From Candidatus Helarchaeota ASGARD archaeon Hel_GB_B (GTDB taxonomy: Archaea; Asgardarchaeota; Lokiarchaeia; Helarchaeales; HEL-GB-B): a DNA stretch of 32,000 nucleotides. The translations under genes were made by a program, and so were the position numbers. The stretch spans positions 1-32,000 of the forward strand of contig SUPR01000019.1 in NCBI GenBank assembly GCA_005191425.1. Reading direction: 5' to 3'. Positions 3,896 through 31,971 of the stretch are shown piece after piece (within the stretch, counting starts at the first letter, position 1; each line of letters starts with the position of its first letter). The notes below the pieces were generated by a model that was given only the letters and a program-made list of their open reading frames with translations, did no database searches and was not told the DNA's origin.

Positions 3896-3949
3896 CAATC
3901 CATTTTAAAATTTTTTATAGACCATAATAATTTGAGGTGTAACAAGTAT

Positions 3950-5065
3950 TTGAGTATAACAGAAAGTTTCTGGTCAAGATATAAGGTTAAGATAATTTCT
4001 GGGCTGATAATTATCATATTGTCCATTTCGATTATCTATACAATAATTTGGATGGTCAACCAAAACAATAAAACAGTTATACACATTTTTCATGCTGGAT
4101 CGCTTTATGTACCTATTGAAGAATTCCAAAGGGAATACGAAGCATTATATCCCAATTATCAAATTGATAATGAAGCATTTGGTAGTGCTACAGCTATTAG
4201 ACAGATTACAGAACTTGGTAGAAAATGTTCAGTATTAGGTACTGCGGACTATTCATTAATTTATACCATGATGATGAATGAATCAGACCCAAATTGTATT
4301 GACGCTACTACAGGAAAAACTTGGGCTGATTGGTATATTATTTTTGCAGTTAATGAAATTGCATTAGCTTATGATGAAAAAAATAACCCGCCATACTTAA
4401 ATTTACTTAAAAATGGTTCCAAACTTTGGTGGCAGGTCTTGAATAGGACGGATGTTGTATTTGGCAGGTCTGACCCATATCAAGACCCCTGTGGATATAG
4501 GACATTAATGGTCTGGGGACTTGCTGATGATTATTATTTTGGCGTTTTACATGGAAATTGGACTTCAAATCAAATTAATCAATCAATGTATAACAAAGAC
4601 CCAATTTCTGGTTATACTGGGCCTGGTGCAACTATTGTAAAAGCAAAAGAGACAGATTTATTATCGTGTTTAGAGGCTGGTGAAATTGATTATTTATTTA
4701 TTTATACTTCTGTAGCGAAACAACATGGGCTCAATTATATAAAATTTGATGACCATCTCAACTTGGCTAATAGGAGTTTAAATGATTTCTATTCCAATGT
4801 TACTGTATTAAGAAAAAGTCCTTTAATTCCTGGTGCTTCTGCAACACCTAAAACAGCCAAAGCTATACAATATGGTATAACAATCCCAAATAATGCGCCG
4901 CACCCAAATTTAGGGATAGATTTTATAAAATTTATGCTTCAACGCCCTGGTATAATGCTATCTTTAGGACAGCCTGCTTATTATCCTGCATATGCTAGCA
5001 ATATTACCAAGATCCCAGAAGTTTTGAGGTCATATTGCGTCCAAGACCCAAATCCCATAATATAA
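3950..5065 (+). CDS. wtpA: Tungstate/molybdate ABC transporter substrate-binding protein (WtpA class) with N-terminal membrane anchor
   Basis: FHAGSL, GSATAIRQITELG, ADYSLI, GRSDPYQDPCGYR, KETDLL (the Asp and Glu typical of WtpA-class oxyanion ligation), YGITIP. Start moved from track position 3932 to the in-frame TTG at 3950 because GAGGTG lies at 3934-3939. Confidence 0.9.
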   Translation: MSITESFWSRYKVKIISGLIIIILSISIIYTIIWMVNQNNKTVIHIFHAGSLYVPIEEFQREYEALYPNYQIDNEAFGSATAIRQITELGRKCSVLGTADYSLIYTMMMNESDPNCIDATTGKTWADWYIIFAVNEIALAYDEKNNPPYLNLLKNGSKLWWQVLNRTDVVFGRSDPYQDPCGYRTLMVWGLADDYYFGVLHGNWTSNQINQSMYNKDPISGYTGPGATIVKAKETDLLSCLEAGEIDYLFIYTSVAKQHGLNYIKFDDHLNLANRSLNDFYSNVTVLRKSPLIPGASATPKTAKAIQYGITIPNNAPHPNLGIDFIKFMLQRPGIMLSLGQPAYYPAYASNITKIPEVLRSYCVQDPNPII

Positions 5066-5120
5066 TCCATAAATTTTTTATTTTTTTCGATTTAGTGATA
5101 AAATCAATTTAGAGGTAAAA

Positions 5121-5948
5121 GTGATAAAAATGAAAATTGATAAATTGGTCTGGAAATATCAAAAATATGGTACTTTTACTATTTTTTTTGTATTTTTATC
5201 TATTTTGCTGATTTTGCTCTTGATTGGACCGATTGTTTATATTCTTTTTCAAGAAGACCCAATGGTCATTTTACAAACCATGAGTACTGATTATGTAATT
5301 CAAGCAATTATTAATTCATTTATGTGTTCCTTTTTCTCAACTTTACTAGCGATAATACTTGGTGTTCCAATGGCGTTTTTATTGGCTAAGTATGATTTTC
5401 CGGGGAAAGGATTTTTAGATTCATTAATTGATTTACCAATTCTTATTCCGCATTCTGTCGCTGGAATAATTTTATTAACTGCGTATAGTAATCATGGTCT
5501 ATTTGGTCAGTTTTTTAATTTATTTGGGTTCACCTTTTTTGATACATATCTTGGGATAATTATTGGGATGTTTTTTGTAAGTTCGCCCTTTTTGATTAAG
5601 GGGACAAGAGATACTTTTTTAATGGTTAACCCAAATTATGAAAAAGCTGCTCGTACATTAGGTGCATCAAGATTTAAAACTTTTATTGACGTAAACATAT
5701 CATTAACTTGGCGGGGAATAATCTCATCAGCCATATTATGCTGGGCGAGAGGGGTCTCTGAATTTGGTGCTGTCTATATTTTAGCGTCTATACCTATTAC
5801 TGGCCCGGTTCTTGTTTATTTCCAATTCGAGGGAAGTGGTCTCTCAGCAGCAATACCAACCGCAATTTCCTTAGTATTAGTCTCATTTTTTATTTTTATT
5901 ATCATTAAAATTATCAATAGAACTCCTAAAAATAGACGTGAGGCTTAA
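5121..5948 (+). CDS. wtpB: Tungstate ABC transporter permease
   Basis: Multiple TM helices, IDLPILIPHSVAG, EAA-like loop YEKAARTLGAS, WARGVSEFGA; GTG start with GAGGT upstream; lies between wtpA and wtpC. Confidence 0.9.
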   Translation: MIKMKIDKLVWKYQKYGTFTIFFVFLSILLILLLIGPIVYILFQEDPMVILQTMSTDYVIQAIINSFMCSFFSTLLAIILGVPMAFLLAKYDFPGKGFLDSLIDLPILIPHSVAGIILLTAYSNHGLFGQFFNLFGFTFFDTYLGIIIGMFFVSSPFLIKGTRDTFLMVNPNYEKAARTLGASRFKTFIDVNISLTWRGIISSAILCWARGVSEFGAVYILASIPITGPVLVYFQFEGSGLSAAIPTAISLVLVSFFIFIIIKIINRTPKNRREA

Positions 5949-5953
5949 CTTTT

Positions 5954-7009
5954 ATGCTAGAATTACAAAATATTTCAAAAAAATGGCAAGATTTTAATTT
6001 GGACAATATCAATCTTGCAATAAATGAAGGTGAATTCTTTGTCATTTTAGGTCCATCTGGGGCAGGTAAAACTCTATTACTGGAATTAATTGCGGGAATT
6101 CATTATGCAGATAAGGGTAAAATTATTTATAATGGAAAAGATATCACGTTATTACCACCGCACAAACGAAATTGTGGATTTGTTTTTCAAGATTCAGCAT
6201 TATTTCCAAATAAAAAAGCCTGGAAAAATATAGCATACGGAATCCGTCTCCAGAAAAGAATAAAATACAAGAAAGTAATGGAAAAAGTAATAGAATTTTT
6301 AAAATTATTTAAAATAGAACATGTGGCAAATAGATATCCATCGACATTAAGTGGGGGTGAAAAACAAAGGGTAGCACTTGCAAGAGCATTAATTATAAAT
6401 CCAAACATTTTATTACTTGATGAGCCTCTCGCTTCGGTCGATTATAATACAATGGTACAACTTAAAGGAGAAATTAAAAGGATACATAAGAAGTTTAAGC
6501 CAATTACAATTTATGTTACACACAACAGACTTGAAGCAATGTCCCTAGCAGATAGAATTGCTGTTATGAATAAAGGGAAAATTGTCCAAGTCGGAACACC
6601 GGACGAAATTTTCAGGAATCCACAATCTGAATTTGTGGCTAAATTTATTGGTTTTGATAATATATTTTCGGGTACTGCAAAATTTAATAAAGAAATTGGG
6701 CTAAGCGAAATTCAAATCGATAGTATGACTATCTATTCAGCTGATAAATTATACGGTAATGTTAAAGTTTGTATTAGGCCTGAAGACATAATACTATCAA
6801 GACAGCCGTTAAAATCAAGTATGAGAAATGTGATAAATGGTACTATAGTCAAAATTGATGATTTAGGGACTCTATTCGAAGTAAGTATTAATATCGGGAC
6901 TATTATCAAAGTTCTAATTACACAAAATGCTTTACTTGATTTGGGACTTAGTGTGGGGTCAAAAACTTATGTAAATTTTAAATCTGCCGCTTTAAAGACA
7001 ATAATGTAA
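5954..7009 (+). CDS. wtpC: Tungstate ABC transporter ATPase with C-terminal TOBE domain
   Basis: Walker A GPSGAGKT, signature LSGGEKQR, Walker B LLLDEP, H-loop YVTH, C-terminal TOBE-like beta region ending FKSAAL. Confidence 0.9.
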   Translation: MLELQNISKKWQDFNLDNINLAINEGEFFVILGPSGAGKTLLLELIAGIHYADKGKIIYNGKDITLLPPHKRNCGFVFQDSALFPNKKAWKNIAYGIRLQKRIKYKKVMEKVIEFLKLFKIEHVANRYPSTLSGGEKQRVALARALIINPNILLLDEPLASVDYNTMVQLKGEIKRIHKKFKPITIYVTHNRLEAMSLADRIAVMNKGKIVQVGTPDEIFRNPQSEFVAKFIGFDNIFSGTAKFNKEIGLSEIQIDSMTIYSADKLYGNVKVCIRPEDIILSRQPLKSSMRNVINGTIVKIDDLGTLFEVSINIGTIIKVLITQNALLDLGLSVGSKTYVNFKSAALKTIM

Positions 7010-12769: not shown

Positions 12770-13522
12770 TTACACATGGCGATCTACTAAAATTCTTGCA
12801 TTTTCAGGGCAATGAGACACACATAGTCCACAACCTTTACATAATTTTAAATTTGTTTCTACTTTTTTATCGTTAGTAAATTTAATAGCATTAAATTGGC
12901 AATAATCGATACATATTCCACACCCTGAATATTTTTCCACATTATATTGGACAATAAAATCTGATGGTTTAATTAAATAGGTTTGTTCTCCAAATAGTTT
13001 ATAGGTATTCAAAACCACACAACAACAAGAACAGCAATTACATATGACATAGAAAAAGTCTTTATTCGGGAAGTGACTTAATTGGTGTACCAATCCCCAT
13101 TCATCAGCTAACTTTAGTATTTTAAAAATTTCTTCTTTTGAAATTTTCATATTAAACCCGGCATTATCTATTTCTTCTAGGTTTTGTCCTCTTGCTAGTA
13201 TAATACATGTATGGACTGGAGCTTTGCAATTTTTATCATGATAAAAAAGTGTCCTACAAAAGCAATCTGTAATGCCTACAACTTCTGCACGTTGGACCAA
13301 CTCATAAATTTCTTGTGATGGTCTTACCTCTACTTCAGTCGAAATGGTCTGCTTTACAGGAATTACACGTCCTCCCTACACATTATGAATTTTTCGATAA
13401 AAATAATACCTGAAATTTTTAATAAATAGTTTTTTAATAATTCTGACAAAAGTTAGCATCGGAATTTCTAAAAATTTTCCGAAATAAGTGGAAAATCTTC
13501 TTTTAATAGATGCATTTTTCAT
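12770..13522 (-). pseudogene. Multi-Cys Fe-S / 4Fe-4S dicluster-domain protein interrupted by an in-frame TAG at codon 49 (nonsense allele or amber readthrough)
   Basis: ATG at 13522 behind GGAGA, 48 codons, TAG at 13378-13376, then the same frame continues GGRVIPVKQTISTEVEVRPSQEIYELVQRAEVVGITDCFCR into track ORF 12770-13300 (CFCR, CNCCSCCC, YSGCGICIDYC, CKGCGLCVSHCP). Confidence 0.7.
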
Positions 13523-13538
13523 TATAATCTCCAAATTC

Positions 13539-14711
13539 TTAAAATTTAATGGGATAGACCCCATATTTTTTTGTAATATTGAGCATACCTTCAATATAAT
13601 TCGCCGGAATCGTATTAGGTGGAATAGAATGGTCTGCAGCCATAATAAATCCTCCGCCAGGTCCTAAATTCTTTATTAATTTTATTGTATAATCTTTAAC
13701 TTCCTCTATTGTCCCATTTGTTAATAAAGGCATTGGGACATTTCCGACAAGCGTGATTTTATCTCCAAATTTTTCATGAATTTCAAAAATATCCATTGGA
13801 ACTGTAGACTGTATCGGGTTTAAGCCATCAAATCCGCTTTCAATGAAATCCGGGATTAATTTTCTGATATTACCACATGAGTGCAAAATAATTTTAGAGC
13901 CATTTTTATGGACAACATTACAAATTTTTTTGTGCCATGGATAAATATACTTCTGTAAAAATTTTGGAGACATAATTGGCCCTAATTTCTCACCAAGATC
14001 TTCGCTTAACCATATAATTTCTGGCGGTGGGTCTATTTCCATAAATCTTTTAATTTTTTCAAAAGTATAAGAGCCGCTATCTTCAAAAACTCGTTTAATA
14101 AATTTTTGTTCTTGATATAGTAATTTTGTAAATAATTCCATCCCAAATCCATTCCAAATTCGACCGAAAATTTCTCCAAAAGATGGTAAAATTACAATCT
14201 CATTGACCTTTTTTCTAATTTTTTGGTATCCATTAATTATTTGGTCAATTTTTGGATCATCAGCACTTGGTATATCCCATTCATCATAATCTTCTTTACT
14301 TGTCCAATATCCTCCCACATAATAAAAACTCTCTGCTCCCTCAGGTAATTTTTGTATTTTCATTTTTGACCCCCAATCAGTTACAATTGTATTTTTATCG
14401 AGAAACTTAATATAAAGTGGTGGATTTGCCATAAAATATGTCAAATCTGCCCCTAAATTCTCATAAAATTTATAAAGCTTTAGTAGATAATTTTCTCGAA
14501 TAGGTGTCAATTTTCTATAAAACCAACTAAGGATATGCCTCCACCCAATCAACCAACTCACAACATTTATTATTGACTTTAAACTTGATATTATTTGAGG
14601 ACCATCATACATTTCAATTATCTTAATGGAATCAATTAGGTCTCCAAAAATTGGTATTCTATCTGGTTCTTTATGTTCTAATGTAGTTATAACCCGATCT
14701 AAAGAATTCAT
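13539..14711 (-). CDS. Uroporphyrinogen decarboxylase / MtaA-CmuA-like family protein (URO-D-like TIM barrel)
   Basis: N-terminal DRVITTLEHKEPDRIP, SEDLG...GPIMSP, LHSCGN, LNPIQ, GNVP, GPGGGFIMAADHSIP. Confidence 0.85.
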   Translation of the reverse strand: MNSLDRVITTLEHKEPDRIPIFGDLIDSIKIIEMYDGPQIISSLKSIINVVSWLIGWRHILSWFYRKLTPIRENYLLKLYKFYENLGADLTYFMANPPLYIKFLDKNTIVTDWGSKMKIQKLPEGAESFYYVGGYWTSKEDYDEWDIPSADDPKIDQIINGYQKIRKKVNEIVILPSFGEIFGRIWNGFGMELFTKLLYQEQKFIKRVFEDSGSYTFEKIKRFMEIDPPPEIIWLSEDLGEKLGPIMSPKFLQKYIYPWHKKICNVVHKNGSKIILHSCGNIRKLIPDFIESGFDGLNPIQSTVPMDIFEIHEKFGDKITLVGNVPMPLLTNGTIEEVKDYTIKLIKNLGPGGGFIMAADHSIPPNTIPANYIEGMLNITKKYGVYPIKF

Positions 14712-17900: not shown

Positions 17901-18553
17901 AATTTGATTTTATTTTTGTATTCAGTTAAATCTTCAAAAAATCCTACTTGTGGAAGATAAAGGCCAAATGGCGGTTGCTTTTTTGGTGGTGGTACCTTTT
18001 TTATTTGTTTCATATTTGCATAATTTTTTAATAAAAATAAGATAAGATTTTTTAGATTCTCAGTTCCGCCCTCAGCAAAGTATTCTTGGGCTAAAATCCA
18101 ATTTCTCATATCTTTTAATATACCAATTGGTAAAATTCGACCTAATTTCTTGGTAAATTCTGAAATTTTTTGCATTTTTAAAAATTTATGTATATCAAAT
18201 TCCACATCTTTATTGGGTTTAAAAATCATACTACCTTTAAATTTTCCCATATTTAGAAAGGAATAGATTTGCTGACTTCCTGCAACTAAAACAACAATGG
18301 TTTTGTCTAACCCTTTCAATAAACTTGATAACTCTCTTCCTACTCTAATATCGCCCCTAATATCAATAAGAATGATATCTGATTCAATTATTTTATTCTT
18401 TATTTCTTGTAGTGAAATATTGTTGTTTTCAAATTCATCAAAATAAACTTTATGCACCTCAACAATTTTACCATATTCTAACTTTATCTCATTAATTGCT
18501 TCTTTTAAGCTAGTTGTATTATTTATTGTAGTTAATGCCAAGATTCGTTTCAC
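14948..18553 (-). CDS. cobN: CobN/ChlH-family class I metal chelatase large subunit
   Basis: 1201 aa. [82 protein letters not shown]. The GTG start overlaps the upstream TGA (GTGA). Metal specificity is not established from sequence. Confidence 0.88.
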
Positions 18554-20788: not shown

Positions 20789-22333
20789 ATGGGTATTTCA
20801 AGTCTAATTGTCCAAAAGATTATAAAATATGTTGATAAATTCATTAGAAAAGATATTGAGCGTCCACTTGAAATTCAAGAAAAGTTATTTCATAGCATAA
20901 TTAAAAGAAATACCCATACAAAATTCGGTATAGACCATAAATTTAGTGAGATCTATAATATTGAAGATTATCAGAAAAATTGTATGCCCCAAAAATATGA
21001 ATATTTCAAACCTTACATTGATGAAATTTTTAAAGGAAACTTTAATTCTCTTTTTAATGCCAGATTAGTCTGTTTTGGTCAAACTCCTGGGACTACAAGT
21101 ACACCCAAATTAATTCCTATTATTCATCAAACATTTTCCAGTGTATCTCTAGCACAATTACGAATTTATACTTCATATATCTTAGAGGACCCTGCTAAAA
21201 ATGCGCAATTTTTGGACGGTATTACATGCTTTTTTAGTGCATATCCTATTTTAAGAAAAATCAAAATAGGAAATCGTAGTTTCAATATTGGCTATGGGAC
21301 GGGAATTTTCTCGTATCCAATATTATATGATATTTCTCATATTTGGAAGATTCTTCTAAAAAACAAAACATTTATCCCAATTGAATTGAATATAATGACA
21401 GATCTAGACAAAAAATATCGGTATTTAACTGATGAATGCTTAAAAAGGGATATAAGGTGTTTCTCAGGGACGCCCCCAATAATTCTCAATTATTTAGAAA
21501 AAATTTTAGATTATAGTGGAGCAAAAAAAATTATTCAACTTTTTCCAAATCTCAGTTATCTCAATTTTGGCGGTATTCCACCCCTATTTTATGAAAAACG
21601 TATTGAGCATGTAATTGGGCGTTCCATTGATTATAGAGAAATGTATGCCGCCACAGAAGGTGTTATAGGTTATCAATTAGACAAAACTCCTTCACTGCTA
21701 ACCCCTGCATTTGATGCTAACTTTTTTGAGTTCATAAGTGTTGACCAACCTGATAAATGCTATACTCTTGCTGATGTTAAAAAGAATGTCAAGTATAGGG
21801 TAGTAATGACGTCATACAATGGTTTTTATAGGTATTTGATTGGCGATATAATCGAATTTAAAAAAATTGACCCTTATTTGTTCAAATTTGTTGATAGAGA
21901 AAATTCAATAAATTTAATGGATGAAAAAATGTCCGTAGACCAAATTTATCTTGCTATTCAAACGAGTGCCCAAAAATTGGATATAATTATTAAAGAATTT
22001 TCGGTTGTAGGTGTCCAAAAAGATAATAGATATGTAATAATTATTGAATTCCTAAAAAAATCTGACTCAAAATTTTATCAGCAATTTATACATCAATTAG
22101 ATGATAATTTTTGCAAAATCAATCCTACATACAAATATTTCAGAAAAAATGTCAAGACAATCAAACCACCAATTTTATGGGTTGTAAAACCTAACGCATT
22201 TAATGAAGTCGAGAATGAACGAATAAAAGAAGGGCAAGCTAGTCATCAATTGAAAATTTTACAAGCAAGTATGGACCTAAATATTTTATCTGAATTTGAA
22301 AATAAAATATTACAAGTCATTACTCTGAAATAA
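20789..22333 (+). CDS. GH3 (auxin-responsive promoter family) acyl-adenylate-forming ligase, copy 1
   Basis: TKFGIDHKF, motif I QTPGTTSTPKLIP, motif II YAATEG, FFEF, motif III GFYRYLIGDII. Confidence 0.85.
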   Translation: MGISSLIVQKIIKYVDKFIRKDIERPLEIQEKLFHSIIKRNTHTKFGIDHKFSEIYNIEDYQKNCMPQKYEYFKPYIDEIFKGNFNSLFNARLVCFGQTPGTTSTPKLIPIIHQTFSSVSLAQLRIYTSYILEDPAKNAQFLDGITCFFSAYPILRKIKIGNRSFNIGYGTGIFSYPILYDISHIWKILLKNKTFIPIELNIMTDLDKKYRYLTDECLKRDIRCFSGTPPIILNYLEKILDYSGAKKIIQLFPNLSYLNFGGIPPLFYEKRIEHVIGRSIDYREMYAATEGVIGYQLDKTPSLLTPAFDANFFEFISVDQPDKCYTLADVKKNVKYRVVMTSYNGFYRYLIGDIIEFKKIDPYLFKFVDRENSINLMDEKMSVDQIYLAIQTSAQKLDIIIKEFSVVGVQKDNRYVIIIEFLKKSDSKFYQQFIHQLDDNFCKINPTYKYFRKNVKTIKPPILWVVKPNAFNEVENERIKEGQASHQLKILQASMDLNILSEFENKILQVITLK

Positions 22334-22495
22334 CAAATATAGACCCATTTTCTTATTTTTAAAATCAAAAAATAACTTAAAAAAACGCGATATCTAATTA
22401 TTATGCCTTATTTTTTTTAAAATAATCAATCAAAAATTTAAATAATAGGAATGGTAATATTATTATTGAATTTCTTAATTTTAGGTAGGGTTTTA

Positions 22496-25159
22496 ATGAA
22501 TCCAAGAATTTTTAAATATAAGGAAAATGTTCTTTCAGCGCCTTATGAAATATGTATTGAACGACCAAAATATTATACTGAGTCCTATAAGAAAACCGAG
22601 GGTCTCCATCCTGTATTAAGGTCTGCCATGGCTTTTAAACATTTAGTTGAGAATATGACTATTTATATTTTAGATGAAGAGATTTTAGTCGGTAATAGGA
22701 CCTCAAAATTAGTGGCACCAATTATACCTATTGAACGGGGAGAGATCAACACAGTAATGAAGGTCGACTTAAACAATTTATTAAAAAGAAAATTCCAGCC
22801 CTTTCACATCGATAAAAAAGATAAAAAATTATTAATGAAGAAAATTCTCCCATATTGGAAGGGTAAAACAGTAAAAGATTTACGTACTAAATTATTAAAA
22901 GAAAATAAACTCATAATTAAACCCAGTATTGGCATAAAATCTTGGATTAAAAGATATAAGTCTATGGGCGGCTTTAATTGGCTAAAAAAATTTTATGACC
23001 TTTTAATGAAGGGCAGATTACGATATATGTTTGAAGGTCTTACTTTACTTGCTACTAATAACCCAAACTTCGTAAATAATGTATTTGATACTCAAGGGCA
23101 CCTTGTCATGGGACATAATAATTTATTAGAAATTGGCGGGTTCTCCAAAATAAAGGAAAAAGCATTAAGAAAATTAGAAGAGCTGGAATCTTCGATAAAT
23201 GAAAATAAAGACCCACCTGAAGTAATACAAAAAAGTATACCTAAAAATTATAGTTCCTTTAATAATCATATTTCCGATGACTTAAATTCAGACCTCTTAA
23301 CTCCTGAACAAAAAGTTGTAGACTATATAAGTCCAGATTCTCTCTCTTTAGAAGATAAAAAGGCATTTCTTAAAGCAGTTTGTATTTGTTGTGATGCTAC
23401 CAAAATTTATGCCGAACGGTTTTCAAAACTTGCAAATGAAATGGCAATGAAGGAAACGAATAAAGATAGAAAAGAAGAATTGCAAAAGATATCTGAAGTC
23501 TGTAAACAAGTCCCATGGAATGGACCCAGAGACTTTCATGAAGCAGTCCAAATGGTCTGGTTTAACCAGGTATTAGGATATTTATCTCATGGAATTGGTG
23601 CTATTTTTGCACTTGGCCGCCCAGACCAATATCTTTATCCGTTTTATTTAAAAGATAAAGAGAAAGGTATGCCTGACCAATATTTTCTGGACTTAATAGA
23701 AGACCTACTCATTAAAACTTCTTATAATTTATTACCTCTTCCATCTTATGCAAAAGCTACGGCTTCCGAATTAGGCGGCGATAATGTAGGAATTTGCGTT
23801 GGCGGTCTGGACAAAGATGGAAATGACGCCACTAATGAGCTCAGTTATTTGTTTATGGACGCTATTAAAGACCTTAAAAACATGACTAATTCGTTTTCAA
23901 TCCGGACTTCTTCTAAGAGTAGTCGAAAATGGTTTGATAAAATTGTAGAAGTATGTACGACTACTTCAGGCCCTGCAATTTATAATGACGATGTAATTAT
24001 CGAGGCACTCAAAAAAACCGGTCTTACGCTGGAAGATGCCAGAGATTATGGAGTAATTGGGTGCGTTGAGCCCTCCGGACAAGGTAATACGCATTCTTGT
24101 ACTTCTGGTAATGACATTGACTTATATGGAATATTAGAGCAGGTATTCACTAATGGAATGATAAGGAGCTGGGGCAAAAGAAGTGGTTTAAAAACGGGGA
24201 ATCCAAGTGATTTTAAGACTTTTAACGAATTTTATAATGCATTTTTGAAGCAATTAAAATTCTGGATCGATTTTATTGTCAAATGGGTGGATATTAAGGA
24301 TTATGTATACGCAAAATATTATCCAAATCCATTTGTTTCATGCACAATGAGTGGTTGCATTGAACATGCTGCTGATATAACCCAAGGTGGTGCAAAATAT
24401 AATATGTCTAGCATCTCTGGGAGAGCTTTTGGTACCACCGTGGACAGCCTTTACGTAATTAAAACAGCTGTTTATGAAAAAAATGTTATTTCGATGGAAA
24501 AACTGTGTAAAATGCTAGCAAAAAATTTCAAGGGAAAAGAAGCCGAAATCATCAGACAAAAATTTGAAAATAAATTTCCCAAATATGGAAATGATATCGA
24601 GGACGTTGATACCCTCGCCGTAAAGTTAACGGAACATTTTTGTAAAATGGTCCGTCAAAATAGATGTATCCATACAAACGAAAATGGCGGCATTTATCGA
24701 CCGGGGTTCTTTTCATATGGAATGAACGTTTCTGATGGATTCTTTCTAGGTGCAAGCCCTGATGGTAGATTGGCTGGTACGCCGGTTTCAAACAGTATGT
24801 CTCCTTCAAATAATTCTGAACGAAATGGACTAACTGCAGTGTTAAATTCTGTTTCTAAGATTGATTTTACCAACGTCAGTAATGGATATTCTATAAATGT
24901 AAGAATCCCCACAAGCTTATTTAATAACAAGGAAAATTCCCAAAAACTTGCTCAGATTATACGTTCCTATTTTCAGCAAGGTGGAAGTCATATCCAATTT
25001 AATATAATTGACCACCACGTGTTATTAGATGCACAAAAACATCCTGAAAATTACAAGGATCTTGTTGTTAGAGTAACCGGATACGCTGCCTATTTTATAG
25101 ACTTGGGAAAATACGTCCAAGATGACATTATTGCGAGATGTCAGTTCCAGATGCTATAG
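22496..25159 (+). CDS. Glycyl radical enzyme of the PFL2/eliminase-like class, substrate unassigned
   Basis: ICIERPKYYTESY, EILVGNRT, QGHLVMG, GRPDQY, Cys loop IGCVEP, GASPDGR, glycyl loop LVVRVTGYAAYF. Start set at ATG 22496 behind AGGTAGGG; the track start is 22451. Confidence 0.9.
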   Translation: MNPRIFKYKENVLSAPYEICIERPKYYTESYKKTEGLHPVLRSAMAFKHLVENMTIYILDEEILVGNRTSKLVAPIIPIERGEINTVMKVDLNNLLKRKFQPFHIDKKDKKLLMKKILPYWKGKTVKDLRTKLLKENKLIIKPSIGIKSWIKRYKSMGGFNWLKKFYDLLMKGRLRYMFEGLTLLATNNPNFVNNVFDTQGHLVMGHNNLLEIGGFSKIKEKALRKLEELESSINENKDPPEVIQKSIPKNYSSFNNHISDDLNSDLLTPEQKVVDYISPDSLSLEDKKAFLKAVCICCDATKIYAERFSKLANEMAMKETNKDRKEELQKISEVCKQVPWNGPRDFHEAVQMVWFNQVLGYLSHGIGAIFALGRPDQYLYPFYLKDKEKGMPDQYFLDLIEDLLIKTSYNLLPLPSYAKATASELGGDNVGICVGGLDKDGNDATNELSYLFMDAIKDLKNMTNSFSIRTSSKSSRKWFDKIVEVCTTTSGPAIYNDDVIIEALKKTGLTLEDARDYGVIGCVEPSGQGNTHSCTSGNDIDLYGILEQVFTNGMIRSWGKRSGLKTGNPSDFKTFNEFYNAFLKQLKFWIDFIVKWVDIKDYVYAKYYPNPFVSCTMSGCIEHAADITQGGAKYNMSSISGRAFGTTVDSLYVIKTAVYEKNVISMEKLCKMLAKNFKGKEAEIIRQKFENKFPKYGNDIEDVDTLAVKLTEHFCKMVRQNRCIHTNENGGIYRPGFFSYGMNVSDGFFLGASPDGRLAGTPVSNSMSPSNNSERNGLTAVLNSVSKIDFTNVSNGYSINVRIPTSLFNNKENSQKLAQIIRSYFQQGGSHIQFNIIDHHVLLDAQKHPENYKDLVVRVTGYAAYFIDLGKYVQDDIIARCQFQML

Positions 25160-25259
25160 ACTTTCTATGTTATAATTTCGAATTTAACTTTTTTAATTCC
25201 ATTCAAAATAAATAGTTTTTGAGTTATACATTATTTAGTAAAAATTTGAGGGTTCTAAA

Positions 25260-26243
25260 TTGTCATTCGTAAACTTAGAAGATGACGATAAATTAAGAAT
25301 TTTATTAAATTCGGCAAGTCTAGAGCAATTAAAGGAATTAATACGGGATTATAATGATGAATGCATTAAAAATAACCAAAAAGAAAATAAAATTAAAGGA
25401 TATTCCAAGTACAGAAAACTTGAACTGACCGATTTTATAATTTCTTCCTTGTCTGATGAATATAAAAAGAAACTATTACCAAAAATCGAAAAACAATACG
25501 TTCAATATCTAATTTCTGATGGGATTTTAATTTTGAAAAATCAAGATACCCGTGAAGTACTAAATAAAGTTGAACATTTCGAAGGTCTGGAAACCGGCTA
25601 TTCTTTTATTTTTAAGGGTTTCAATTGGGAAACTGAAACAAAAATAATACTTGCAGATGATGGTTCAATAGATGACTTTATATGTGGCTGTAGAATTGCT
25701 CAGAACCAGGGATTATGCAGGCATTTCTTTACAGGTTTGATTTATCTTTTAAATATTGGTGAATTAGACCCAAACAATCTTGGCATTTTTTTCGAGATTG
25801 AAGATGATAAATTAAAGGAAATAAAATCATTGGAAGTTGTAATTGGAAAATCAAGACCAGGGACTGGCGTTGAAACTTTAATGCCTTTTGATAAGATTGA
25901 AACCGCTCCAGTGATCGAACAATTTGCATCTGAGGACGAAAAGCAGCGCGTTTCAATTTATGATGCAAAAATTGTTTTAATAAGCGAAAATAAGTCTACA
26001 TTTCAAGACCATGTCAATATATGGTATCTTATTAAAATACAAGGTGGTGAATGCGGAAATATTGACGAAACATTACCTGATAAAGAACCTTTCAATGAAA
26101 TTAATATAAGGTGTTCAAAGAAATTGATGGAGAAAGAAAAATTAAAAGTTAATGACATAATCTCGTTTAAGGGTACCTTAAAAAGAGATAACTTTTTTGG
26201 TCTTTTATTACAAAATATACGTAAAATTGTTAAATCAAATTAA
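25260..26243 (+). CDS. Hypothetical nucleic-acid-binding protein: N-terminal helical (HeH/SAP-like) region, SWIM zinc finger, C-terminal OB-like fold
   Basis: SWIM C-x-C-x8-C-x-H (CGCRIAQNQGLCRH at 25683-25724). N-terminal LEQLKELIRDY...IKGYSKYRKLELTDFI. C-terminal alternating beta strands ending LKVNDIISFKGTL. The non-SWIM domains are pattern-based calls. Confidence 0.6.
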   Translation: MSFVNLEDDDKLRILLNSASLEQLKELIRDYNDECIKNNQKENKIKGYSKYRKLELTDFIISSLSDEYKKKLLPKIEKQYVQYLISDGILILKNQDTREVLNKVEHFEGLETGYSFIFKGFNWETETKIILADDGSIDDFICGCRIAQNQGLCRHFFTGLIYLLNIGELDPNNLGIFFEIEDDKLKEIKSLEVVIGKSRPGTGVETLMPFDKIETAPVIEQFASEDEKQRVSIYDAKIVLISENKSTFQDHVNIWYLIKIQGGECGNIDETLPDKEPFNEINIRCSKKLMEKEKLKVNDIISFKGTLKRDNFFGLLLQNIRKIVKSN

Positions 26244-26393
26244 AAATTTAATTTTTAGGTCTCTAATTTTTTTGTAATTATAAATTTTTCTAATTTTCAT
26301 ATGATTTTTTAAGTAAAAAAGATTTTTAAATTCTATATTATGATTTACAATGAATTTGGATGAAATTAGGTTAATTAAAAGGAAGAATAGAAA

Positions 26394-27524
26394 ATGAGCA
26401 AAAAAAAAGTGATTTTAATATCGATTTTTTCGATAATTATTGCTGTAACTATTTATGCATTAATAGATTTTATTTATCCACAATTCAACCTAATTCCAGA
26501 CTGGGTATTTCCGACTATTTATTCTTATTTAGTAGTAATTTTTTATAAGGACAACTATTATTTCTTTATCATTGCTCTTTTAGCAAATTTCATAAGCGGA
26601 GGTATTTTTGGACTTGGTTATAATATTACAAAGCGATATCGAGTCAACGGGACAATAATTTATTTGATTGGTCTATGTGGTATTTTTCTAATAATCTTAA
26701 TTTCTATTGGGTATTATGGCTTTAGTATTATTTTTGCGGACGATATTACAGTTTCCTTAAAGATCATTTTATTAGGGACATATATGCCACTTCTGTTTAT
26801 TTTTTTTTTAATATTAGAATTAATTTTTGATTCTGGCTCTTATTTAAAAGATGTAATCAAGGCAAGGCACGAATATAAAAATCTTGATTATAGGGTAAAA
26901 AAGATAAAAGACGGAAAAGTAACTTTTATTGAAGTTTTTCGGAAAAATGAGGATTCAACAACCAAGTGTTTTTTTGAAACTGCACCTCAATTAGTCTTAG
27001 AAGAAGCACTATACAAGCTTGGTGATGGAGCAATATCAAGGTACATTAAAGCTGCAGCTACTAATATTATTCTCTTAATTGCATCCCATTTAACTGGGTG
27101 GCATTCTGCAAAAGCTGCATTATATAGATTCCTTGGTGCTAAAATTGGCAAACATTGTTTAATTTCTCATTATAGCAGGTTTGACCCACTTATGCCTAAT
27201 AAAATCGAGATGGAAGATTATGCAGGAATTGGGATGGAAGTATTATTACTTACCCATAGTTTTATTGATAGAGAAGGTTTTATGGGATTTAGATATGGCA
27301 CTGTTAAATTATGTAAACATTGCCGTATTGGAGTTAGTGCTACAGTTTTACCCGGTGTCACAATTGGAGAAGGAGCTGTCGTAGCTGCAAATTCATTAGT
27401 AACCAAAGATATCCCTCCTTGGACAATGGTAGGCGGAGTCCCTGCAAAAGTCATCCGGAAACTTGACCGGTCAATAGCTCATGTTTTGACCAATGAAATT
27501 GATGGTGAATTAATGGATGAATAA
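26394..27524 (+). CDS. Membrane-anchored hexapeptide-repeat (left-handed beta-helix) acyltransferase with about 4 N-terminal TM helices
   Basis: Hydrophobic N-terminal ~145 aa. C-terminal LYRFLGAKIGKHC, LLTHS, CRIGVSATVLPGVTIGEGAVVAANSLVTKDIPPWTMVGGVPAKVIR. Confidence 0.85.
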   Translation: MSKKKVILISIFSIIIAVTIYALIDFIYPQFNLIPDWVFPTIYSYLVVIFYKDNYYFFIIALLANFISGGIFGLGYNITKRYRVNGTIIYLIGLCGIFLIILISIGYYGFSIIFADDITVSLKIILLGTYMPLLFIFFLILELIFDSGSYLKDVIKARHEYKNLDYRVKKIKDGKVTFIEVFRKNEDSTTKCFFETAPQLVLEEALYKLGDGAISRYIKAAATNIILLIASHLTGWHSAKAALYRFLGAKIGKHCLISHYSRFDPLMPNKIEMEDYAGIGMEVLLLTHSFIDREGFMGFRYGTVKLCKHCRIGVSATVLPGVTIGEGAVVAANSLVTKDIPPWTMVGGVPAKVIRKLDRSIAHVLTNEIDGELMDE

Positions 27525-27586
27525 AATGAACGTTAAATAATATAGAAAATTGAAAATAATAATTCTGCTCGTGTATTCAGGTCAAT

Positions 27587-29128
27587 GTGATGAAGTTTCT
27601 AAGTTTGATTGGAAAATCGTTTGGAAATTATCTTCTAAATTATTTTGAGGATAAAAACGAAGCACCAATTAAAACTCAGATTAAATTATTGAGTAAAATT
27701 TTAAAATATAATTCTACTACTAATTTTGGAAAGAAACACCATTTTTCTGAAGTTAGGAGTATACGAGATTTCCAGAAAAATTGTAAAATTATAGATTATT
27801 CTTATTTAGTTCCTTATATTCGCGCTACAATAGAGGGAAACAAAAATGCATTAACAAATTCTAAAATTTTATATTGGGCACAGACTTCCGGAACTCTTGG
27901 CGCACCGAAATTGATCCCTATAACTAAGTTTATAATTGATACTTATAGTTCATTGTCGGTTAGAATTATTTTACATTATATAAAAGAATATCCTGAGAGG
28001 TCTGAATTTCTGGACGGTAAATGGTTTTTATTATCTAGTTACCCTTTATTAAGGTATGAAAAAGACGGAACCCCAGTCGGATTTATAACGGGTATCATTA
28101 TGCATCCATTTGGAATTTATTCATGGAAAAAATTTATCAGACCTTTTTATTATTATCCGATCAAATTTCTACAAATAAGAGATGTAGAAACTAGGTTCAA
28201 AAGGATCGCTGTTGATATTAAAAATAAAAATATTACTTACACAATGGGAGTAACTTCTGTTATAATGAACTTTTTTGAGAAAATAATTGAATATAATAAT
28301 GTAAATAATTTACTGGAAATTATACCTAATTACAAATTTGCAATTTTTTCAGGAGGGGGCACAAGAAAATATATTGATAGATTTTATAAAATAGTCGGGA
28401 GGAAAATAGATGTAAGAGAAGGTTATTTTGCAACTGAAGGGAGTTTTGCTATTCAAAAATCTGATAAACCTGTAATGGAATTTGCATACGATTCTTGTTT
28501 TTACGAATTTTTACCTGTTTCAAATAAAAATAAAGGTATTGAACGACTCATTATAGACCAGTTAGAAAAAAACAAAGAATATTCCCTCATTATTACTTGT
28601 TATAATGGACTTTATGCTTATACTATGAATGATATTATTAAAGTAATTTCTACTGACCCCCTACAAATTCAGTTTTCTTATCGATCTGGAGTTATTGATT
28701 TAGCTGATGAAAAATTAACACCTAATGAAATAAATATGGCTGTTATGTATTCAGCAAATAAAAATAATTGCGATTTTATTGATTATTGTTTAGTCGGAGT
28801 TTATAACCCTAAACCTCATTACATATTTATTTTTGAATTTAAAGATAAAAACACTCCAAAAGATTATACGCTATTTTTGAAAGATATTGACTTAAAATTA
28901 CAAGAACTTAATAATATTTATTACTTTAACATCGCAGGGCCCAATAAAGGGACTTTAACGAGTCCAGAATTGTGGGTACTTAAAAAGAATGGCTTTATCG
29001 AAGCAAATAACAGAAAAATTAATGAATTTGATAATATTGGGCAATCCAAAATTAATCGTTATTCTACTGATAGCACTATATTGAAATATTTTGATGATTT
29101 AATAATTTCCAAATATTATTTAGAGTAA
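27587..29128 (+). CDS. GH3-family acyl-adenylate-forming ligase, copy 2
   Basis: TNFGKKHHF, motif I QTSGTLGAPKLIP, motif II YFATEG, FYEF, motif III GLYAYTMNDII. Confidence 0.85.
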   Translation: MMKFLSLIGKSFGNYLLNYFEDKNEAPIKTQIKLLSKILKYNSTTNFGKKHHFSEVRSIRDFQKNCKIIDYSYLVPYIRATIEGNKNALTNSKILYWAQTSGTLGAPKLIPITKFIIDTYSSLSVRIILHYIKEYPERSEFLDGKWFLLSSYPLLRYEKDGTPVGFITGIIMHPFGIYSWKKFIRPFYYYPIKFLQIRDVETRFKRIAVDIKNKNITYTMGVTSVIMNFFEKIIEYNNVNNLLEIIPNYKFAIFSGGGTRKYIDRFYKIVGRKIDVREGYFATEGSFAIQKSDKPVMEFAYDSCFYEFLPVSNKNKGIERLIIDQLEKNKEYSLIITCYNGLYAYTMNDIIKVISTDPLQIQFSYRSGVIDLADEKLTPNEINMAVMYSANKNNCDFIDYCLVGVYNPKPHYIFIFEFKDKNTPKDYTLFLKDIDLKLQELNNIYYFNIAGPNKGTLTSPELWVLKKNGFIEANNRKINEFDNIGQSKINRYSTDSTILKYFDDLIISKYYLE

Positions 29129-29155
29129 ATTAAATAAAAAGATGGTTTAAATAGA

Positions 29156-29839
29156 TTGAATAAAAATAAATTTGAAAAATATTATCAAAGGGAAGGTTTA
29201 AAATTTGGATTGAATGATTATTATATCGGAATTTACCAGATGTATTCATCTCATGCCTGTAGAATTTCGATTATAAAAAAATGGTTAAAACTTATTAAAA
29301 CTGGAAATTTCTGTGAAGTAGGTTGTGGATTTGGTTATTTTACTCATTTTGTCGCAAAAAAAGGAATACCAAGTACTGGTATAGATATCTCCGAAAATAA
29401 ATTGAAAATAGCTCGGCGAATTGCAGAAAAAAATAAATTAAACTGTAAGTTTTATAGGATGGACGCTCAAAATTTAGATTTCAAGGGCAATTCTTTTAAT
29501 TGGGTACTTAGTTCTCAAGTTTTAGAACATGTTCCTGATGATTTAAAAATGATTTCCGAATTATACAGAATTTCTAAAAAATATACTATTCTTACTGTTC
29601 CCAAAAAAGCGTTATTCTGGGAATTATTAGATTCCAGTTCTCACATTAGAAGTTTTGATAAACCTGGACATGGGCATCTAAGAGAATATACCACTAAAAA
29701 TATTATTGAAAAAGTAAATAAGGTTGGATTTAAAGTCTTAGAGATGAAATATGCTGGTTTTATTTCCCCCCGAATTGATATTATATTTAATAAAATACCT
29801 TTTATGCAAGCAATAATATGTCTCTTGCTTAGGAAATGA
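29156..29839 (+). CDS. Class I SAM-dependent methyltransferase
   Basis: CEVGCGFG, GIDIS, MDAQNLDFKGNSFNWVLSSQVLEHVPDD, HLREYT; starts 27 nt after GH3 copy 2. Confidence 0.85.
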   Translation: MNKNKFEKYYQREGLKFGLNDYYIGIYQMYSSHACRISIIKKWLKLIKTGNFCEVGCGFGYFTHFVAKKGIPSTGIDISENKLKIARRIAEKNKLNCKFYRMDAQNLDFKGNSFNWVLSSQVLEHVPDDLKMISELYRISKKYTILTVPKKALFWELLDSSSHIRSFDKPGHGHLREYTTKNIIEKVNKVGFKVLEMKYAGFISPRIDIIFNKIPFMQAIICLLLRK

Positions 29840-29859: not shown

Positions 29860-30210
29860 TTATGTAAAATAATGCAGTTTTTCCAAGTCTTCTTTTTCAT
29901 TCTTCTCTTCTATGTCTAGATCCTTCTCAAGTAGTAGCTTTTCAATAAATTCTAAAAGAAAATCACTATCTGCATAGTTCATATGATCTCGATCTCCATC
30001 GTCATTTATTTCTCCAGTTTTTACAAGTTCATCAAAAGCATCCTGAATTTCTTCCTTAGAGATATTTAAATAATCAGCTACTTCATCTAAAGGGATCTTA
30101 TTTCTACCAGTTTTTTCATGGAACTGATTACATACTTCTAAAGCATCTTTCGCCAGTCTCAATTTTCTTGCATCTAATTTGTCGATATCATAATCGCTTT
30201 CTTTCTTCAT
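29860..30210 (-). CDS. Small acidic winged-helix-like protein
   Basis: IPLDEVADYLNISKEEIQDAFDELVKTGEI fits a wHTH pattern. ATG at 30210 with GTGA upstream; the track start is 30234. Confidence 0.6.
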   Translation of the reverse strand: MKKESDYDIDKLDARKLRLAKDALEVCNQFHEKTGRNKIPLDEVADYLNISKEEIQDAFDELVKTGEINDDGDRDHMNYADSDFLLEFIEKLLLEKDLDIEEKNEKEDLEKLHYFT

Positions 30211-30579
30211 AATATTCACTAGTATTACTATCATATTTTATCATATTTTTAATTTATGTTTTTAAAAGAAATAAACCGAATTTAAAGAATCCTATTTTCA
30301 TATTTAATACAATTTTTCGCGTTAATATTTTCTACAAATTTTTGTTCATAATCAAGATCTCTGCATTTAAAAATAATTAAATTTAATTTTTAATGTTATT
30401 ATTTAAAAAAATTCCCATTTTCAAAATGTTGGTGTTAAAAAACTTACAAAAATATGTAATAAATATTTAAAAATAATTTGAAATAAATAGTTTTATAAGA
30501 GAAAAAAAGTAAAAATAACTTAGAAATTAGACTCTATTTTAATTAAATTAACAAATATTTAGAATAAAAGGATTTTAAA

Positions 30580-31194
30580 ATGAGTTCAGAAAACAAAAAA
30601 GGATTTAAGCTTAGTTATAAATATTATAAGATGTTATTAAACTTTAAGGAAAAAACAAATATCCCTGAAATTAAAATTCCGGGTGTTATTATTAGAAAAT
30701 ATGATAAAGATAAAGATTTTAATAAATTTGTAGATTTATATAATAAAATTAAAGTCCCATTTTATGACCCAAATTATACTGAATCTGAATTTAAATTAAT
30801 CCAAAATGATATGGTCTTTTTAGCTGAAATTGACAATAAATTAGTTGGGTATGTCATCTGTTTTATAAGGGACGCAAAATATGATAAAGATTCAGAACAA
30901 TTTTTTGATAAAGAATTAGCGCAATATGTAAATAAAAATGAAAGACTGGGTGTTTTGGGAGAAATTGGTGTACTCGAAGAATATAGGAGGAGTGGAATTG
31001 CAACAGCATTAGCTGCAGAAGTAGGGCGTTACTTTAAAGAGAAAAATGTGGATAAGATCTATGCTGAAGCTTATTCAGAAAATGTTGAAGCCTTAAAATT
31101 TATACAGAGCTTTGGGTTTAAGAAAATTGGTATGGTGGTAGTTACACAAGACGAAGTTAGAAAACCACATCCAAGAAGGATTCGACCGAGTTAA
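30580..31194 (+). CDS. GNAT-family N-acetyltransferase
   Basis: FLAEIDNKLVGY, acetyl-CoA motif IGVLEEYRRSGIATAL, NVEALKFIQSFGFK. Confidence 0.88.
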   Translation: MSSENKKGFKLSYKYYKMLLNFKEKTNIPEIKIPGVIIRKYDKDKDFNKFVDLYNKIKVPFYDPNYTESEFKLIQNDMVFLAEIDNKLVGYVICFIRDAKYDKDSEQFFDKELAQYVNKNERLGVLGEIGVLEEYRRSGIATALAAEVGRYFKEKNVDKIYAEAYSENVEALKFIQSFGFKKIGMVVVTQDEVRKPHPRRIRPS

Positions 31195-31218
31195 ATTTCT
31201 TTTTATATTCGTTTATAT

Positions 31219-31971
31219 TCATTTATTTACGGAGCGGTCGTAAGCAAAAATTCCTAAAAAAATGATTGAAATTGTAAAAATTGTGATCCCGATCATATCT
31301 TGAATTTGTATTTGCCATTGAAAAAGAAGCGACCTTAATATATTAACTCCGAAACTCATTGGATTGAATTGTAATATATAAACTACCAGATTTGGGAAAT
31401 AATTTGAGATTATATCAATAGGGTAGAATATTGTAGAACCAAACATCAACCACAAATACACCAAACTTCGAGCTAATGTAAAATTCCGGCTACCCCTAAT
31501 CGATGTAGCTAAAATAATTGCCAATGAAGTCATGGAAAGCGAAAAAACTATAATAAAAAATAATATAATCAGAATTTCTAAAATATTCGGTAATCTAATT
31601 AAAATAAATGATGTAATAAGTAGTGGAAATGAATAAACAAGCCCTTGCAAGGCTCCAGCTAATGCCCTGCCTAATATAAAGTCCAATCTTTTTAAAGGTA
31701 AAGAAAGTAAATAAAAATCAAATTTGTTTTCTTTTTCAATATTTATTTTCCGCCCTAAAATGAATGACGCTGAAAATGCAGAAACTAAAGTTATTCCAGG
31801 ACTGAAAAATTTCAAATAATTCAGGCCAACAATTAAATTTCCGAGTGTATTTGCCATAATCAACAAATCAATGATATATGATACCATTAATATTGCGATC
31901 CAATAAGTAAACCTGAAAAAGTTCTTAATGTCCATTTTTAAAATTATAACAAATGTTAGTCGGTTTTTCAA
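31219..31971 (-). CDS. ABC-2-type transporter permease
   Basis: About 6 TM helices, FSPGITLVSAF, LLSLPLKRLDFILGRAL, FGSTIFYP, NPMSFGVNILR; TTG start with GGAGGGTGG upstream. Confidence 0.85.
   Translation of the reverse strand: MKNRLTFVIILKMDIKNFFRFTYWIAILMVSYIIDLLIMANTLGNLIVGLNYLKFFSPGITLVSAFSASFILGRKINIEKENKFDFYLLSLPLKRLDFILGRALAGALQGLVYSFPLLITSFILIRLPNILEILIILFFIIVFSLSMTSLAIILATSIRGSRNFTLARSLVYLWLMFGSTIFYPIDIISNYFPNLVVYILQFNPMSFGVNILRSLLFQWQIQIQDMIGITIFTISIIFLGIFAYDRSVNK

Follow-up and report, generated by a model that had tools for sequence, protein, structure and literature searches.

The 32,000-nucleotide stretch analysed here (the window; positions 1-32000 of contig C92) comes from a metagenome-assembled genome (MAG) of 3.54 Mb in 182 contigs, which is 93.7% complete and has a G+C content of ~28%. 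Between positions 20789 and 29839 it carries six co-oriented genes: two for GH3-family ligases (GH3_1 and GH3_2), one for a glycyl radical enzyme (GRE), one for an LbH acyltransferase with transmembrane (TM) helices (TM-LbH), one for an S-adenosylmethionine (SAM)-dependent methyltransferase (MT) and one for a protein without a Pfam family (protein X). The reading that we favour, and consider fairly probable, is that of a composite locus: a core of TM-LbH, GH3_2 and MT, with GH3_1 as an old associate, would tailor a membrane-bound compound through amide formation, acetylation and methylation, and the GRE and protein X would have separate roles. This reading draws on gene content, sequence motifs, conservation patterns and the history of the GH3 paralogs. 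The nearest homologs of the window GH3, GRE and LbH proteins carry the names Candidatus Helarchaeota, Lokiarchaeota and Promethearchaeota. The six genes are as follows.

20789..22333, plus strand: GH3_1, with the Pfam GH3 N, M and C domains; paralog lineage A2
22451..25159, plus strand: GRE, with PFL-like and Gly_radical domains (Pfam); likely true start at ATG 22496
25260..26243, plus strand: protein X, without a Pfam family; SWIM-like CxCx8CxH at residues 142-155
26394..27524, plus strand: TM-LbH, with 4-5 N-terminal TM helices (residues 1-145) followed by Pfam Hexapep
27587..29128, plus strand: GH3_2, with the Pfam GH3 N, M and C domains; paralog lineage B
29156..29839, plus strand: MT, a class I SAM-dependent methyltransferase; a T6 run follows the gene

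An earlier note on this DNA had described six co-oriented genes with these domains and spacers of 62 and 27 nt between the last three; all six open reading frames (ORFs) lie on the plus strand as described and the spacers are exact. Contigs of independent hydrothermal-vent and sediment metagenome runs span the junctions GH3_1/GRE, GRE/X, LbH/GH3_2 and MT/orf124 (the ORF that follows MT), and contigs from other samples show an identical gene order, which rules out an assembly artefact. The spacers of 100-200 nt between GH3_1, GRE, X and LbH contain runs of T5-T8. Runs of at least five T follow GH3_1, GRE, X and MT in the window and none lies between LbH, GH3_2 and MT, a pattern that in a genome of 72% A+T is no more than suggestive.

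The core trio and its GH3 ligases

The trio TM-LbH-GH3_2-MT was found in five of five family-level lineages (the window and the loci L075, L076, L078 and L079; loci, genomes and contigs are given here by L, G and C numbers), including the lineage in which the GRE is encoded elsewhere. Its spacers are 13-70 nt long in L075, L076, L078 and L079. All six genomes of the class that carry the GH3 clade of the window (G000, G002, G004, G006, G012 and G035) have a GH3 gene directly beside a TM-LbH gene, with either of the two first. The pair extends to other families of the class and involves different GH3 paralogs. The GH3_2 lineage stands next to TM-LbH in G002, G012 and G035 and in all family-level relatives, and GH3_1 lies within 4-7 kb of a TM-LbH gene both in the window and in an order-level relative. 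The search for a conserved neighbourhood that had been proposed in the earlier note thus has a divided outcome: the full block recurs within the family only and is broken in a congener, whereas the LbH-GH3 pair holds at the level of order and class.

The C-terminal 150 residues of TM-LbH match acetyl-CoA-dependent hexapeptide transferases (YvoF and the MAT/GAT/Vat enzymes), with a Pfam Hexapep score of 36.9 bits (cut-off 27), and the conserved histidine of these enzymes is present; this residue, His288, is invariant in an alignment of 20 sequences. The best NCBIfam match is the YvoF-type heptaprenylglyceryl-phosphate O-acetyltransferase (NF058585), at 90.1 bits against a cut-off of 300. Since the Hexapep match and His288 hold while the YvoF score falls this far short, the protein is regarded as an LbH transferase and not as a YvoF equivalog, from which it also differs in its extra domain of 4-5 membrane helices. 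Its solved relatives in the PDB are sugar and xenobiotic O-acetyltransferases. A profile search of 1.84 billion representatives placed the full-length family in ~14 clusters at 50% identity, and a word-based search with the membrane domain as the sole query returned close relatives only. Judged from these ~14 clusters, the family with the additional helices is apparently restricted to Asgard archaea.

In the LbH tree the GH3-linked proteins fall on one side of a branch with a Shimodaira-Hasegawa-like approximate likelihood ratio test (SH-aLRT) value of 92, and both subfamilies occur in G012. In Lokiarchaeia, genes of the second subfamily lie in a conserved cluster (L045-L055, for example L050:771-14191) with GT2s, a polysaccharide deacetylase, UDP-galactopyranose mutase and a sulfotransferase; further genes of the cluster encode a CDP-alcohol phosphatidyltransferase, several B12-radical SAM proteins and a LuxE-like adenylate-forming enzyme (8 of 12 loci). 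This is a candidate complex glycolipid or envelope-glycan cluster.

For MT the best NCBIfam matches are generic (MftM, UbiG, BioC and PmtA), all under their cut-offs, and the best solved match is the peptide carboxyl methyltransferase LahSB at 49.5 bits. The C-terminal residues 207-225 are hydrophobic and highly conserved in sequence; they might form a membrane tail or may be part of the fold.

Both ligases pass the three-domain GH3 test by Pfam gathering scores (PF03321, PF23571 and PF23572; cut-offs all 23.6): the N, M and C domains score 86.2, 54.5 and 59.5 bits in GH3_1 and 107.6, 54.3 and 42.6 bits in GH3_2. In the PDB, sequence matches are confined to solved plant enzymes, and the plant proteins (JAR1/AtGH3.11, VvGH3-1 and AtGH3.5/6/12) share the three-domain architecture and the nucleotide-binding motifs. 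They differ in that the scores reach only 25-58 bits, the window proteins have ~510 residues compared with ~580-610 in plants, and the window context is one of membrane enzymes with nothing that hints at hormone-like substrates. The earlier note had plants as the best-known source of GH3 enzymes, a view that has been overtaken: a bacterial member, OlsH, was characterised in 2025. This enzyme of Singulisphaera acidiphila, a GH3-family protein, uses ATP to join a fatty acid directly to ornithine, giving N-acyl ornithine; its S115A mutant is inactive, which makes the serine of motif 1 essential (PMC12493201). OlsH is the only characterised prokaryotic GH3. It is also the only NCBIfam family that both window proteins match (E values of 6e-49 and 6e-43), with all three motifs recognisable, although their scores of 167.0 bits (GH3_1) and 147.2 bits (GH3_2) miss the equivalog cut-off of 620 for NF052613. 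The earlier note knew of no characterised archaeal GH3, and this stands: no study of archaeal GH3 ligases was found in the published literature on GH3 or 'Gretchen Hagen' together with Asgard or archaea.

The nucleotide-binding motifs were defined as S/T-S-G-T..K (motif 1), Y..SE (motif 2) and G.Y.Y..GD (motif 3) (after PMC12493201). All three are present in GH3_2 (TSGTLGAPK, YFATE and GLYAYTMND), which by its domains and motifs is predicted to be a canonical GH3 acyl-acid amido synthetase. An exact look-up of the GH3_2 sequence found no record, and a scan for related loci with this protein as sole query yielded one Bacteroidota locus up to its limit. In GH3_1 (TPGTTSTPK, YAATE and GFYRYLIGD) motifs 2 and 3 are intact and motif 1 has a proline where OlsH has the essential Ser115, a change that is kept in the GH3_1 orthologs. 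A third GH3 of the genome (C126:5706-7235) has TAGT in motif 1, and this change too is conserved in its lineage.

The GH3 tree contains one class-level clade (support 100/100) made up of three paralog lineages, A2 (GH3_1), A1 (the C126 gene) and B (GH3_2), and the two divergent paralogs that had been noticed in the window therefore belong to separate lineages. In G004 a distance of 5 kb separates an A2 gene from an A1-LbH pair, and three pairs of a B12-radical SAM gene and a small membrane protein gene fill the interval. In the genome of the window the radical-SAM/A1 cassette is on C126, and the GRE and X occupy the interval between the A2 gene and LbH. The different contents of these two intervals indicate that GH3_1 and LbH are old neighbours with variable cargo between them, and GH3_1 would be an older paralog, more loosely attached to the core module. 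B12-binding radical SAM proteins of ~470 residues occur beside GH3 paralogs at C126:529-7494, L029:2881-7930 and L036:3520-5140, each paired with a protein of 71-84 residues that has one TM helix and the motif YGRD(D/E)V(V/I)K.

GH3 genes were found in 89 of the 301 genomes sampled from the phylum (~30%). In other Asgard families their neighbours differ: one such family (L070:378-19276 in G141 and L071:1-14000 in G070) has 6-7 GH3 genes in tandem, with AlaDH-like, saccharopine-dehydrogenase-like and luciferase-like genes before the array and an ABC/MacB-type exporter after it, an arrangement that looks like a multi-ligase natural-product cluster. In two further families a single GH3 gene lies next to, and converges on, the gene for a conserved protein of ~225 residues with ~7 TM helices and without a Pfam family (L062:6529-7218, L064:6798-7484, L065:9782-10459, L066, L073 and L074). 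In G035 and G012 two genes for the D-component of 2-hydroxyacyl-CoA dehydratase (HGD-D) follow the LbH-GH3 pair (L033:11599-14093 and L035:11608-13879). The GH3 protein of the Helarchaeales-order genome G002 (P0008 / L032; G002:C115:866-2398) has an identical counterpart in NCBI under the name 'Candidatus Deferrimicrobium sp.'; the contig is probably mis-binned.

The glycyl radical enzyme, protein X and the six-gene order

The GRE has both the glycyl motif (RVTGY at residue 874, nt 25070-25084; Gly_radical 105 bits in Pfam) and the thiyl loop with the catalytic cysteine (GCVEP at residue 537, nt 24059-24073), and it is of the PFL2/glycerol dehydratase type, with 609.5 bits to TIGR01774, under the subfamily cut-off of 678.2. 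It is under every equivalog cut-off in NCBIfam (HypD, 531 bits for 1100; CutC, 460 for 1050; IAD, 335 for 1100) and the HPAD model gives 271 bits. The glycyl motif and the Cys-x-Glu loop are shared with B12-independent glycerol and diol dehydratases, HypD and CutC, and the scores to the solved enzymes are 390-450 bits; of these, glycerol dehydratase, diol dehydratase and HypD are the closest. The protein differs from this group of enzymes in its longer N-terminal third, its scores under the cut-offs and the lack of an adjacent activase gene. There is no activase gene anywhere in the block, and the sole match in the 93.7% complete genome over the TIGR02494 cut-off is at C152:8043-8924. Protein X and the Fer4 ORF at 12770-13300, both considered as activase, were ruled out as neither has a radical-SAM domain.

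The features around the block are as follows.

3932..7009, plus strand: SBP_bac_11 / BPD_transp_1 / ABC-TOBE transporter, with orthologs near the L083 GRE (49-55% identity)
12770..14711, minus strand: gene for a Fer4 protein and a URO-D/MtaA-like gene
14948-20337, minus strand: CobN/ChlID chelatase genes, between the URO-D-like gene and GH3_1
29860..31971, mixed strands: downstream context of orf124 (minus), GNAT (plus) and the first ABC-2 permease (minus)
30580-31194, plus strand: GNAT
31219-31971, minus strand: ABC-2 permease

Orthologs of the GRE are present in G005, G029 and G031, and no GH3 was found in those genomes. The orthologs of L083 and G005 (50-57% identity) are part of a conserved operon that is 73-88% identical between the two and has a ModA-like ABC transporter before it. 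The operon (L083:4354-14912 and L041, G005:C5, 2667-15290) comprises an AMP-ligase gene, followed by genes for a corrinoid protein, URO-D (MtaA-like), the GRE, aldehyde:ferredoxin oxidoreductase, ferredoxin, SCP2 and an iron alcohol dehydrogenase (Fe-ADH). Its content points to a putative, undescribed route in which corrinoid methyl transfer and radical 1,2-elimination would lead to an aldehyde. The company of an aldehyde oxidoreductase and an alcohol dehydrogenase is what would be expected for an aldehyde-forming eliminase. Parts of this operon are dispersed in the genome of the window, with corrinoid/URO-D genes on C84:1074-2799 and aldehyde oxidoreductase, ferredoxin, alcohol dehydrogenase and SCP2 genes on C9:33763-37696. 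The transporter is at 3932-7009 of the window; in L083 its orthologs precede the GRE ortholog at a distance of 4-7 kb, and it looks like remnant synteny of the older neighbourhood of the GRE. Taken together, these comparisons suggest that the GRE is probably an aldehyde-forming eliminase with scattered partners in a separate catabolic route. As an enzyme of the 1,2-eliminase type, it would have come between GH3_1 and TM-LbH in the ancestor of the family.

A first comparison covered 40 species-representative relatives, in which GH3 of the window clade occurs in only seven genomes and has no GRE, X or MT gene beside it, only a TM-LbH gene. These genomes alone were misleading: the block seemed unique to the genome of the window, as if by chance juxtaposition of GRE and GH3. 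Closer relatives from metagenome contigs (L075, L076, L078 and L079) overturned this by revealing conservation in a narrow clade, and deeper comparison then set the GRE apart. The order GH3-GRE-X-LbH-GH3-MT was found in three further Helarchaeota-type assemblies: L075, a 527-kb Helarchaeota contig with the full six-gene order; L079 and its partial twin L082, both with an extra 191-residue ORF inserted between GH3 and GRE; and L078, which shows the order from the GRE onward. The enzymes encoded in L075, L078 and L079 are 59-77% identical to those of the window (59-72% for the GH3_1 orthologs of L075 and L079). The flanks vary, with an insertion sequence (IS) element upstream of the block in L075 and other genes after MT in L078 and L079. 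In L075, L079 and L082 the Fer4 and URO-D/MtaA-like genes are directly upstream of GH3_1 and divergent from it; the CobN/ChlID genes that intervene in the window are gone from that position, which implies a lineage-specific insertion or loss. The downstream synteny of orf124, GNAT and ABC-2 is kept in L075, L076 and G001:C164 and lost in L078.

Outside one family-level clade the six-gene order was not found, and even within it a congeneric species (G001 and JGI sample 3300033150) departs from this order. In this species L076 carries LbH-GH3_2-MT-orf-GNAT-ABC2 on a different contig from the GRE, the ortholog of which (75% identity) is intact on a 41-kb contig with unrelated flanks (a second GRE with its own activase, GNATs, a hydrolase, a C25 peptidase and an alcohol dehydrogenase). 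Because the five family-level GREs are 73-80% identical to one another, the congener protein is an ortholog and not a distant paralog. GH3_1 and X were not found in the congeneric MAG G001. A single six-gene operon would be expected to keep its order beyond close relatives and to have short spacers throughout; here the order is confined to the family and the spacers around GRE and X are 100-200 nt long.

Could the six genes nevertheless form one pathway, with the GRE making or consuming the acid (or its precursor) for both GH3s and with LbH and MT finishing the product? Co-orientation of all six genes would fit. So would the shared order, which the window, L075, L078 and L079/L082 retain although their flanks differ in part, and the other radical enzymes that relatives encode close to GH3. 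Arylacetates are substrates of some GREs and are also accepted by plant GH3s. The window GRE is, however, closest to dehydratase-type eliminases and not to arylacetate decarboxylases (531 bits for HypD against 335 for IAD and 271 for HPAD), and its adjacency to GH3 could easily arise by chance, as GREs are found in 37 of the 41 genomes of the class, often in several copies each. Its detachment in the congener, the different conserved operon that houses its orthologs in sister lineages, the orthologs in genomes without a detected GH3, the long T-run spacers that bound GRE and X and the absence of an activase from the block all argue that the GRE is a separate unit. We therefore consider a single pathway unlikely. 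An acid-activation route coupled to the GRE, which the earlier note had offered, finds no support in the orthologs that are detached, bound to another operon or present in genomes without a detected GH3; its other proposal, a cluster for amide formation and acyl and methyl transfer, is supported for TM-LbH, GH3_2 and MT, and the GRE and X seem to lie outside it.

Protein X had been labelled a SWIM protein. The label reflects the motif CGC-x8-CRH at residues 142-155, which has the CxCxnCxH pattern (CGCRIAQNQGLCRH); in Pfam neither the SWIM model (PF04434) nor Rho_N is matched, even at E<=1. The protein belongs to an Asgard-specific family of ~319 residues, the atlas clusters of which carry Rho_N, and it evolves fast, with 43-45% identity (L075, L078 and L079) where its neighbours have ~70%. 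Homologs in G002, G005 and G006 sit elsewhere. Protein X is probably a nucleic-acid-binding protein.

At the upstream end of the window, the Fer4 ORF (176 residues) and an in-frame upstream ORF (72 residues) at 12770-13594 on the minus strand are split by a TAG codon. The counterpart in L079 and L082 is a single Fer4 protein of 252 residues encoded directly downstream of the URO-D-like gene, from which it follows that the window gene is either broken or translated by read-through.

A proposed membrane-bound product and its alternatives

From the patterns described above we infer the chemistry, the co-transcription and the membrane localisation of the core. GH3_2 would convert a carboxylic acid and ATP to an acyl-adenylate and then join it to an amine, giving an amide; this step is proposed on the basis of the chemistry common to plant GH3 enzymes and bacterial OlsH. 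The membrane-anchored LbH would acetylate or acylate the same molecule at the membrane with acyl-CoA, and MT would methylate it. The most likely product would be a membrane lipid or a lipid-linked head group to which an acid or amino acid is joined by an amide bond, as an archaeal counterpart of N-acyl-amino-acid lipids. The lipid theme rests on the TM helices of LbH, its best match to YvoF, the neighbours of the second LbH subfamily, the pairs of B12-radical SAM and one-helix proteins (C126, G004 and G006) and the likeness to OlsH.

In S. acidiphila, an ornithine-lipid operon unites OlsH with OlsG, an N-methyltransferase, and OlsI, an O-acyltransferase (PMC12493201; review PMC12971839). This operon appears to be the closest known system to the window core, as both combine a prokaryotic GH3, a SAM-dependent methyltransferase and an acyltransferase in one operon. 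The window MT, 27 nt after GH3_2, is likened to OlsG by class of activity and not by sequence. OlsI is an alpha/beta hydrolase, whereas its counterpart in the window is a membrane-anchored LbH and the block contains no alpha/beta hydrolase; further differences are the two or three GH3 paralogs of the window genome, compared with one, and the archaeal host. A more distant resemblance is to the poly-amino-acid synthetases Pls/PosA, which also combine an adenylating enzyme with a membrane-bound LbH-like transferase (a weak TIGR02353 match of 39 bits against a cut-off of 423). The window proteins are separate and have no carrier (T) domain, and the resemblance is one of design only.

The product might instead be a secreted small molecule, such as an acetylated, methyl-esterified N-acyl amino acid or some other natural product with an amide, made by LbH, GH3_2 and MT and exported by the ABC-2 system, and not a structural lipid. 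The GNAT and the ABC-2 permease that the earlier note placed near the block are both present in the window, and L075, L076 and G001 also have a GNAT and an ABC-2/DrrA-type exporter downstream. The arrays of 6-7 GH3 genes in another Asgard genus have an ABC/MacB-type exporter after them, and among solved structures MT comes closest to a peptide carboxyl methyltransferase. This interpretation nonetheless appears improbable: the exporter and the GNAT are on other strands or in separate units and are not beside MT in L078, and LbH is an integral membrane protein with a paralog subfamily that is found with lipid head-group and glycan genes. Even less probable, indeed very unlikely, is the absence of any functional coupling, with the LbH-GH3 adjacency as inherited synteny without a common substrate: most TM-LbH genes of the class do lack a GH3 partner (the second subfamily is present in 31 of the 69 genomes of family f4, mostly without GH3) and GH3 genes have other neighbours in other Asgard families, but the pair persists in three families, with either gene first and with more than one GH3 paralog, the GH3-linked LbHs form their own subfamily and the spacers are 13-70 nt.

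Several points weigh against the composite locus and the membrane-bound product that we favour. The adenylation activity of lineages A2 (TPGT) and A1 (TAGT) may be altered or lost, and the ligase activity of GH3_1 and the C126 paralog, both without the motif-1 serine, is uncertain. The gene for MT is not adjacent to GH3 outside the family of the window. LbH enzymes normally take acyl-CoA or acyl-ACP donors, and that LbH and GH3 would act on one molecule is an assumption of the proposed mechanism. As to the separate role of the GRE, GH3_1 and X were not found in a congeneric MAG that is fragmented (93% complete, 8% contamination), which makes their absence weak evidence. Four of the five family-level lineages retain the order of the whole block despite partly different flanks; this could reflect selection on the whole block and not descent alone. 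Radical enzymes also lie near GH3 in relatives, with B12-radical SAM proteins in the interval between the GH3_1-type gene and LbH in G004 and HGD-D genes after GH3 in G012 and G035, and GH3 may have a recurrent association with radical enzymes.

Archaeal GH3s appear to be unstudied despite their presence in ~30% of the sampled genomes of the phylum, and the core described here ties one of them to a methyltransferase and to a membrane acetyltransferase that is apparently restricted to Asgard archaea, in a module of three genes that is open to expression and assay. Published surveys, which cover bacteria only, describe amino lipids of the OlsH type as absent from archaea (PMC12493201; PMC12971839). 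We suggest, tentatively and with low confidence, that a GH3-dependent route similar to that of OlsH/OlsG/OlsI provides Lokiarchaeia/Helarchaeales with amide-linked amino lipids or with ether-lipid head groups that carry amino acids, and that the paralogous clusters contribute B12-radical SAM tailoring. If true, this would be the first pathway of the aminolipid type in archaea, and an amide-linked lipid or head group would bear on the make-up of Asgard membranes, a question at the heart of ideas on the archaeal-bacterial 'lipid divide' and on eukaryogenesis.

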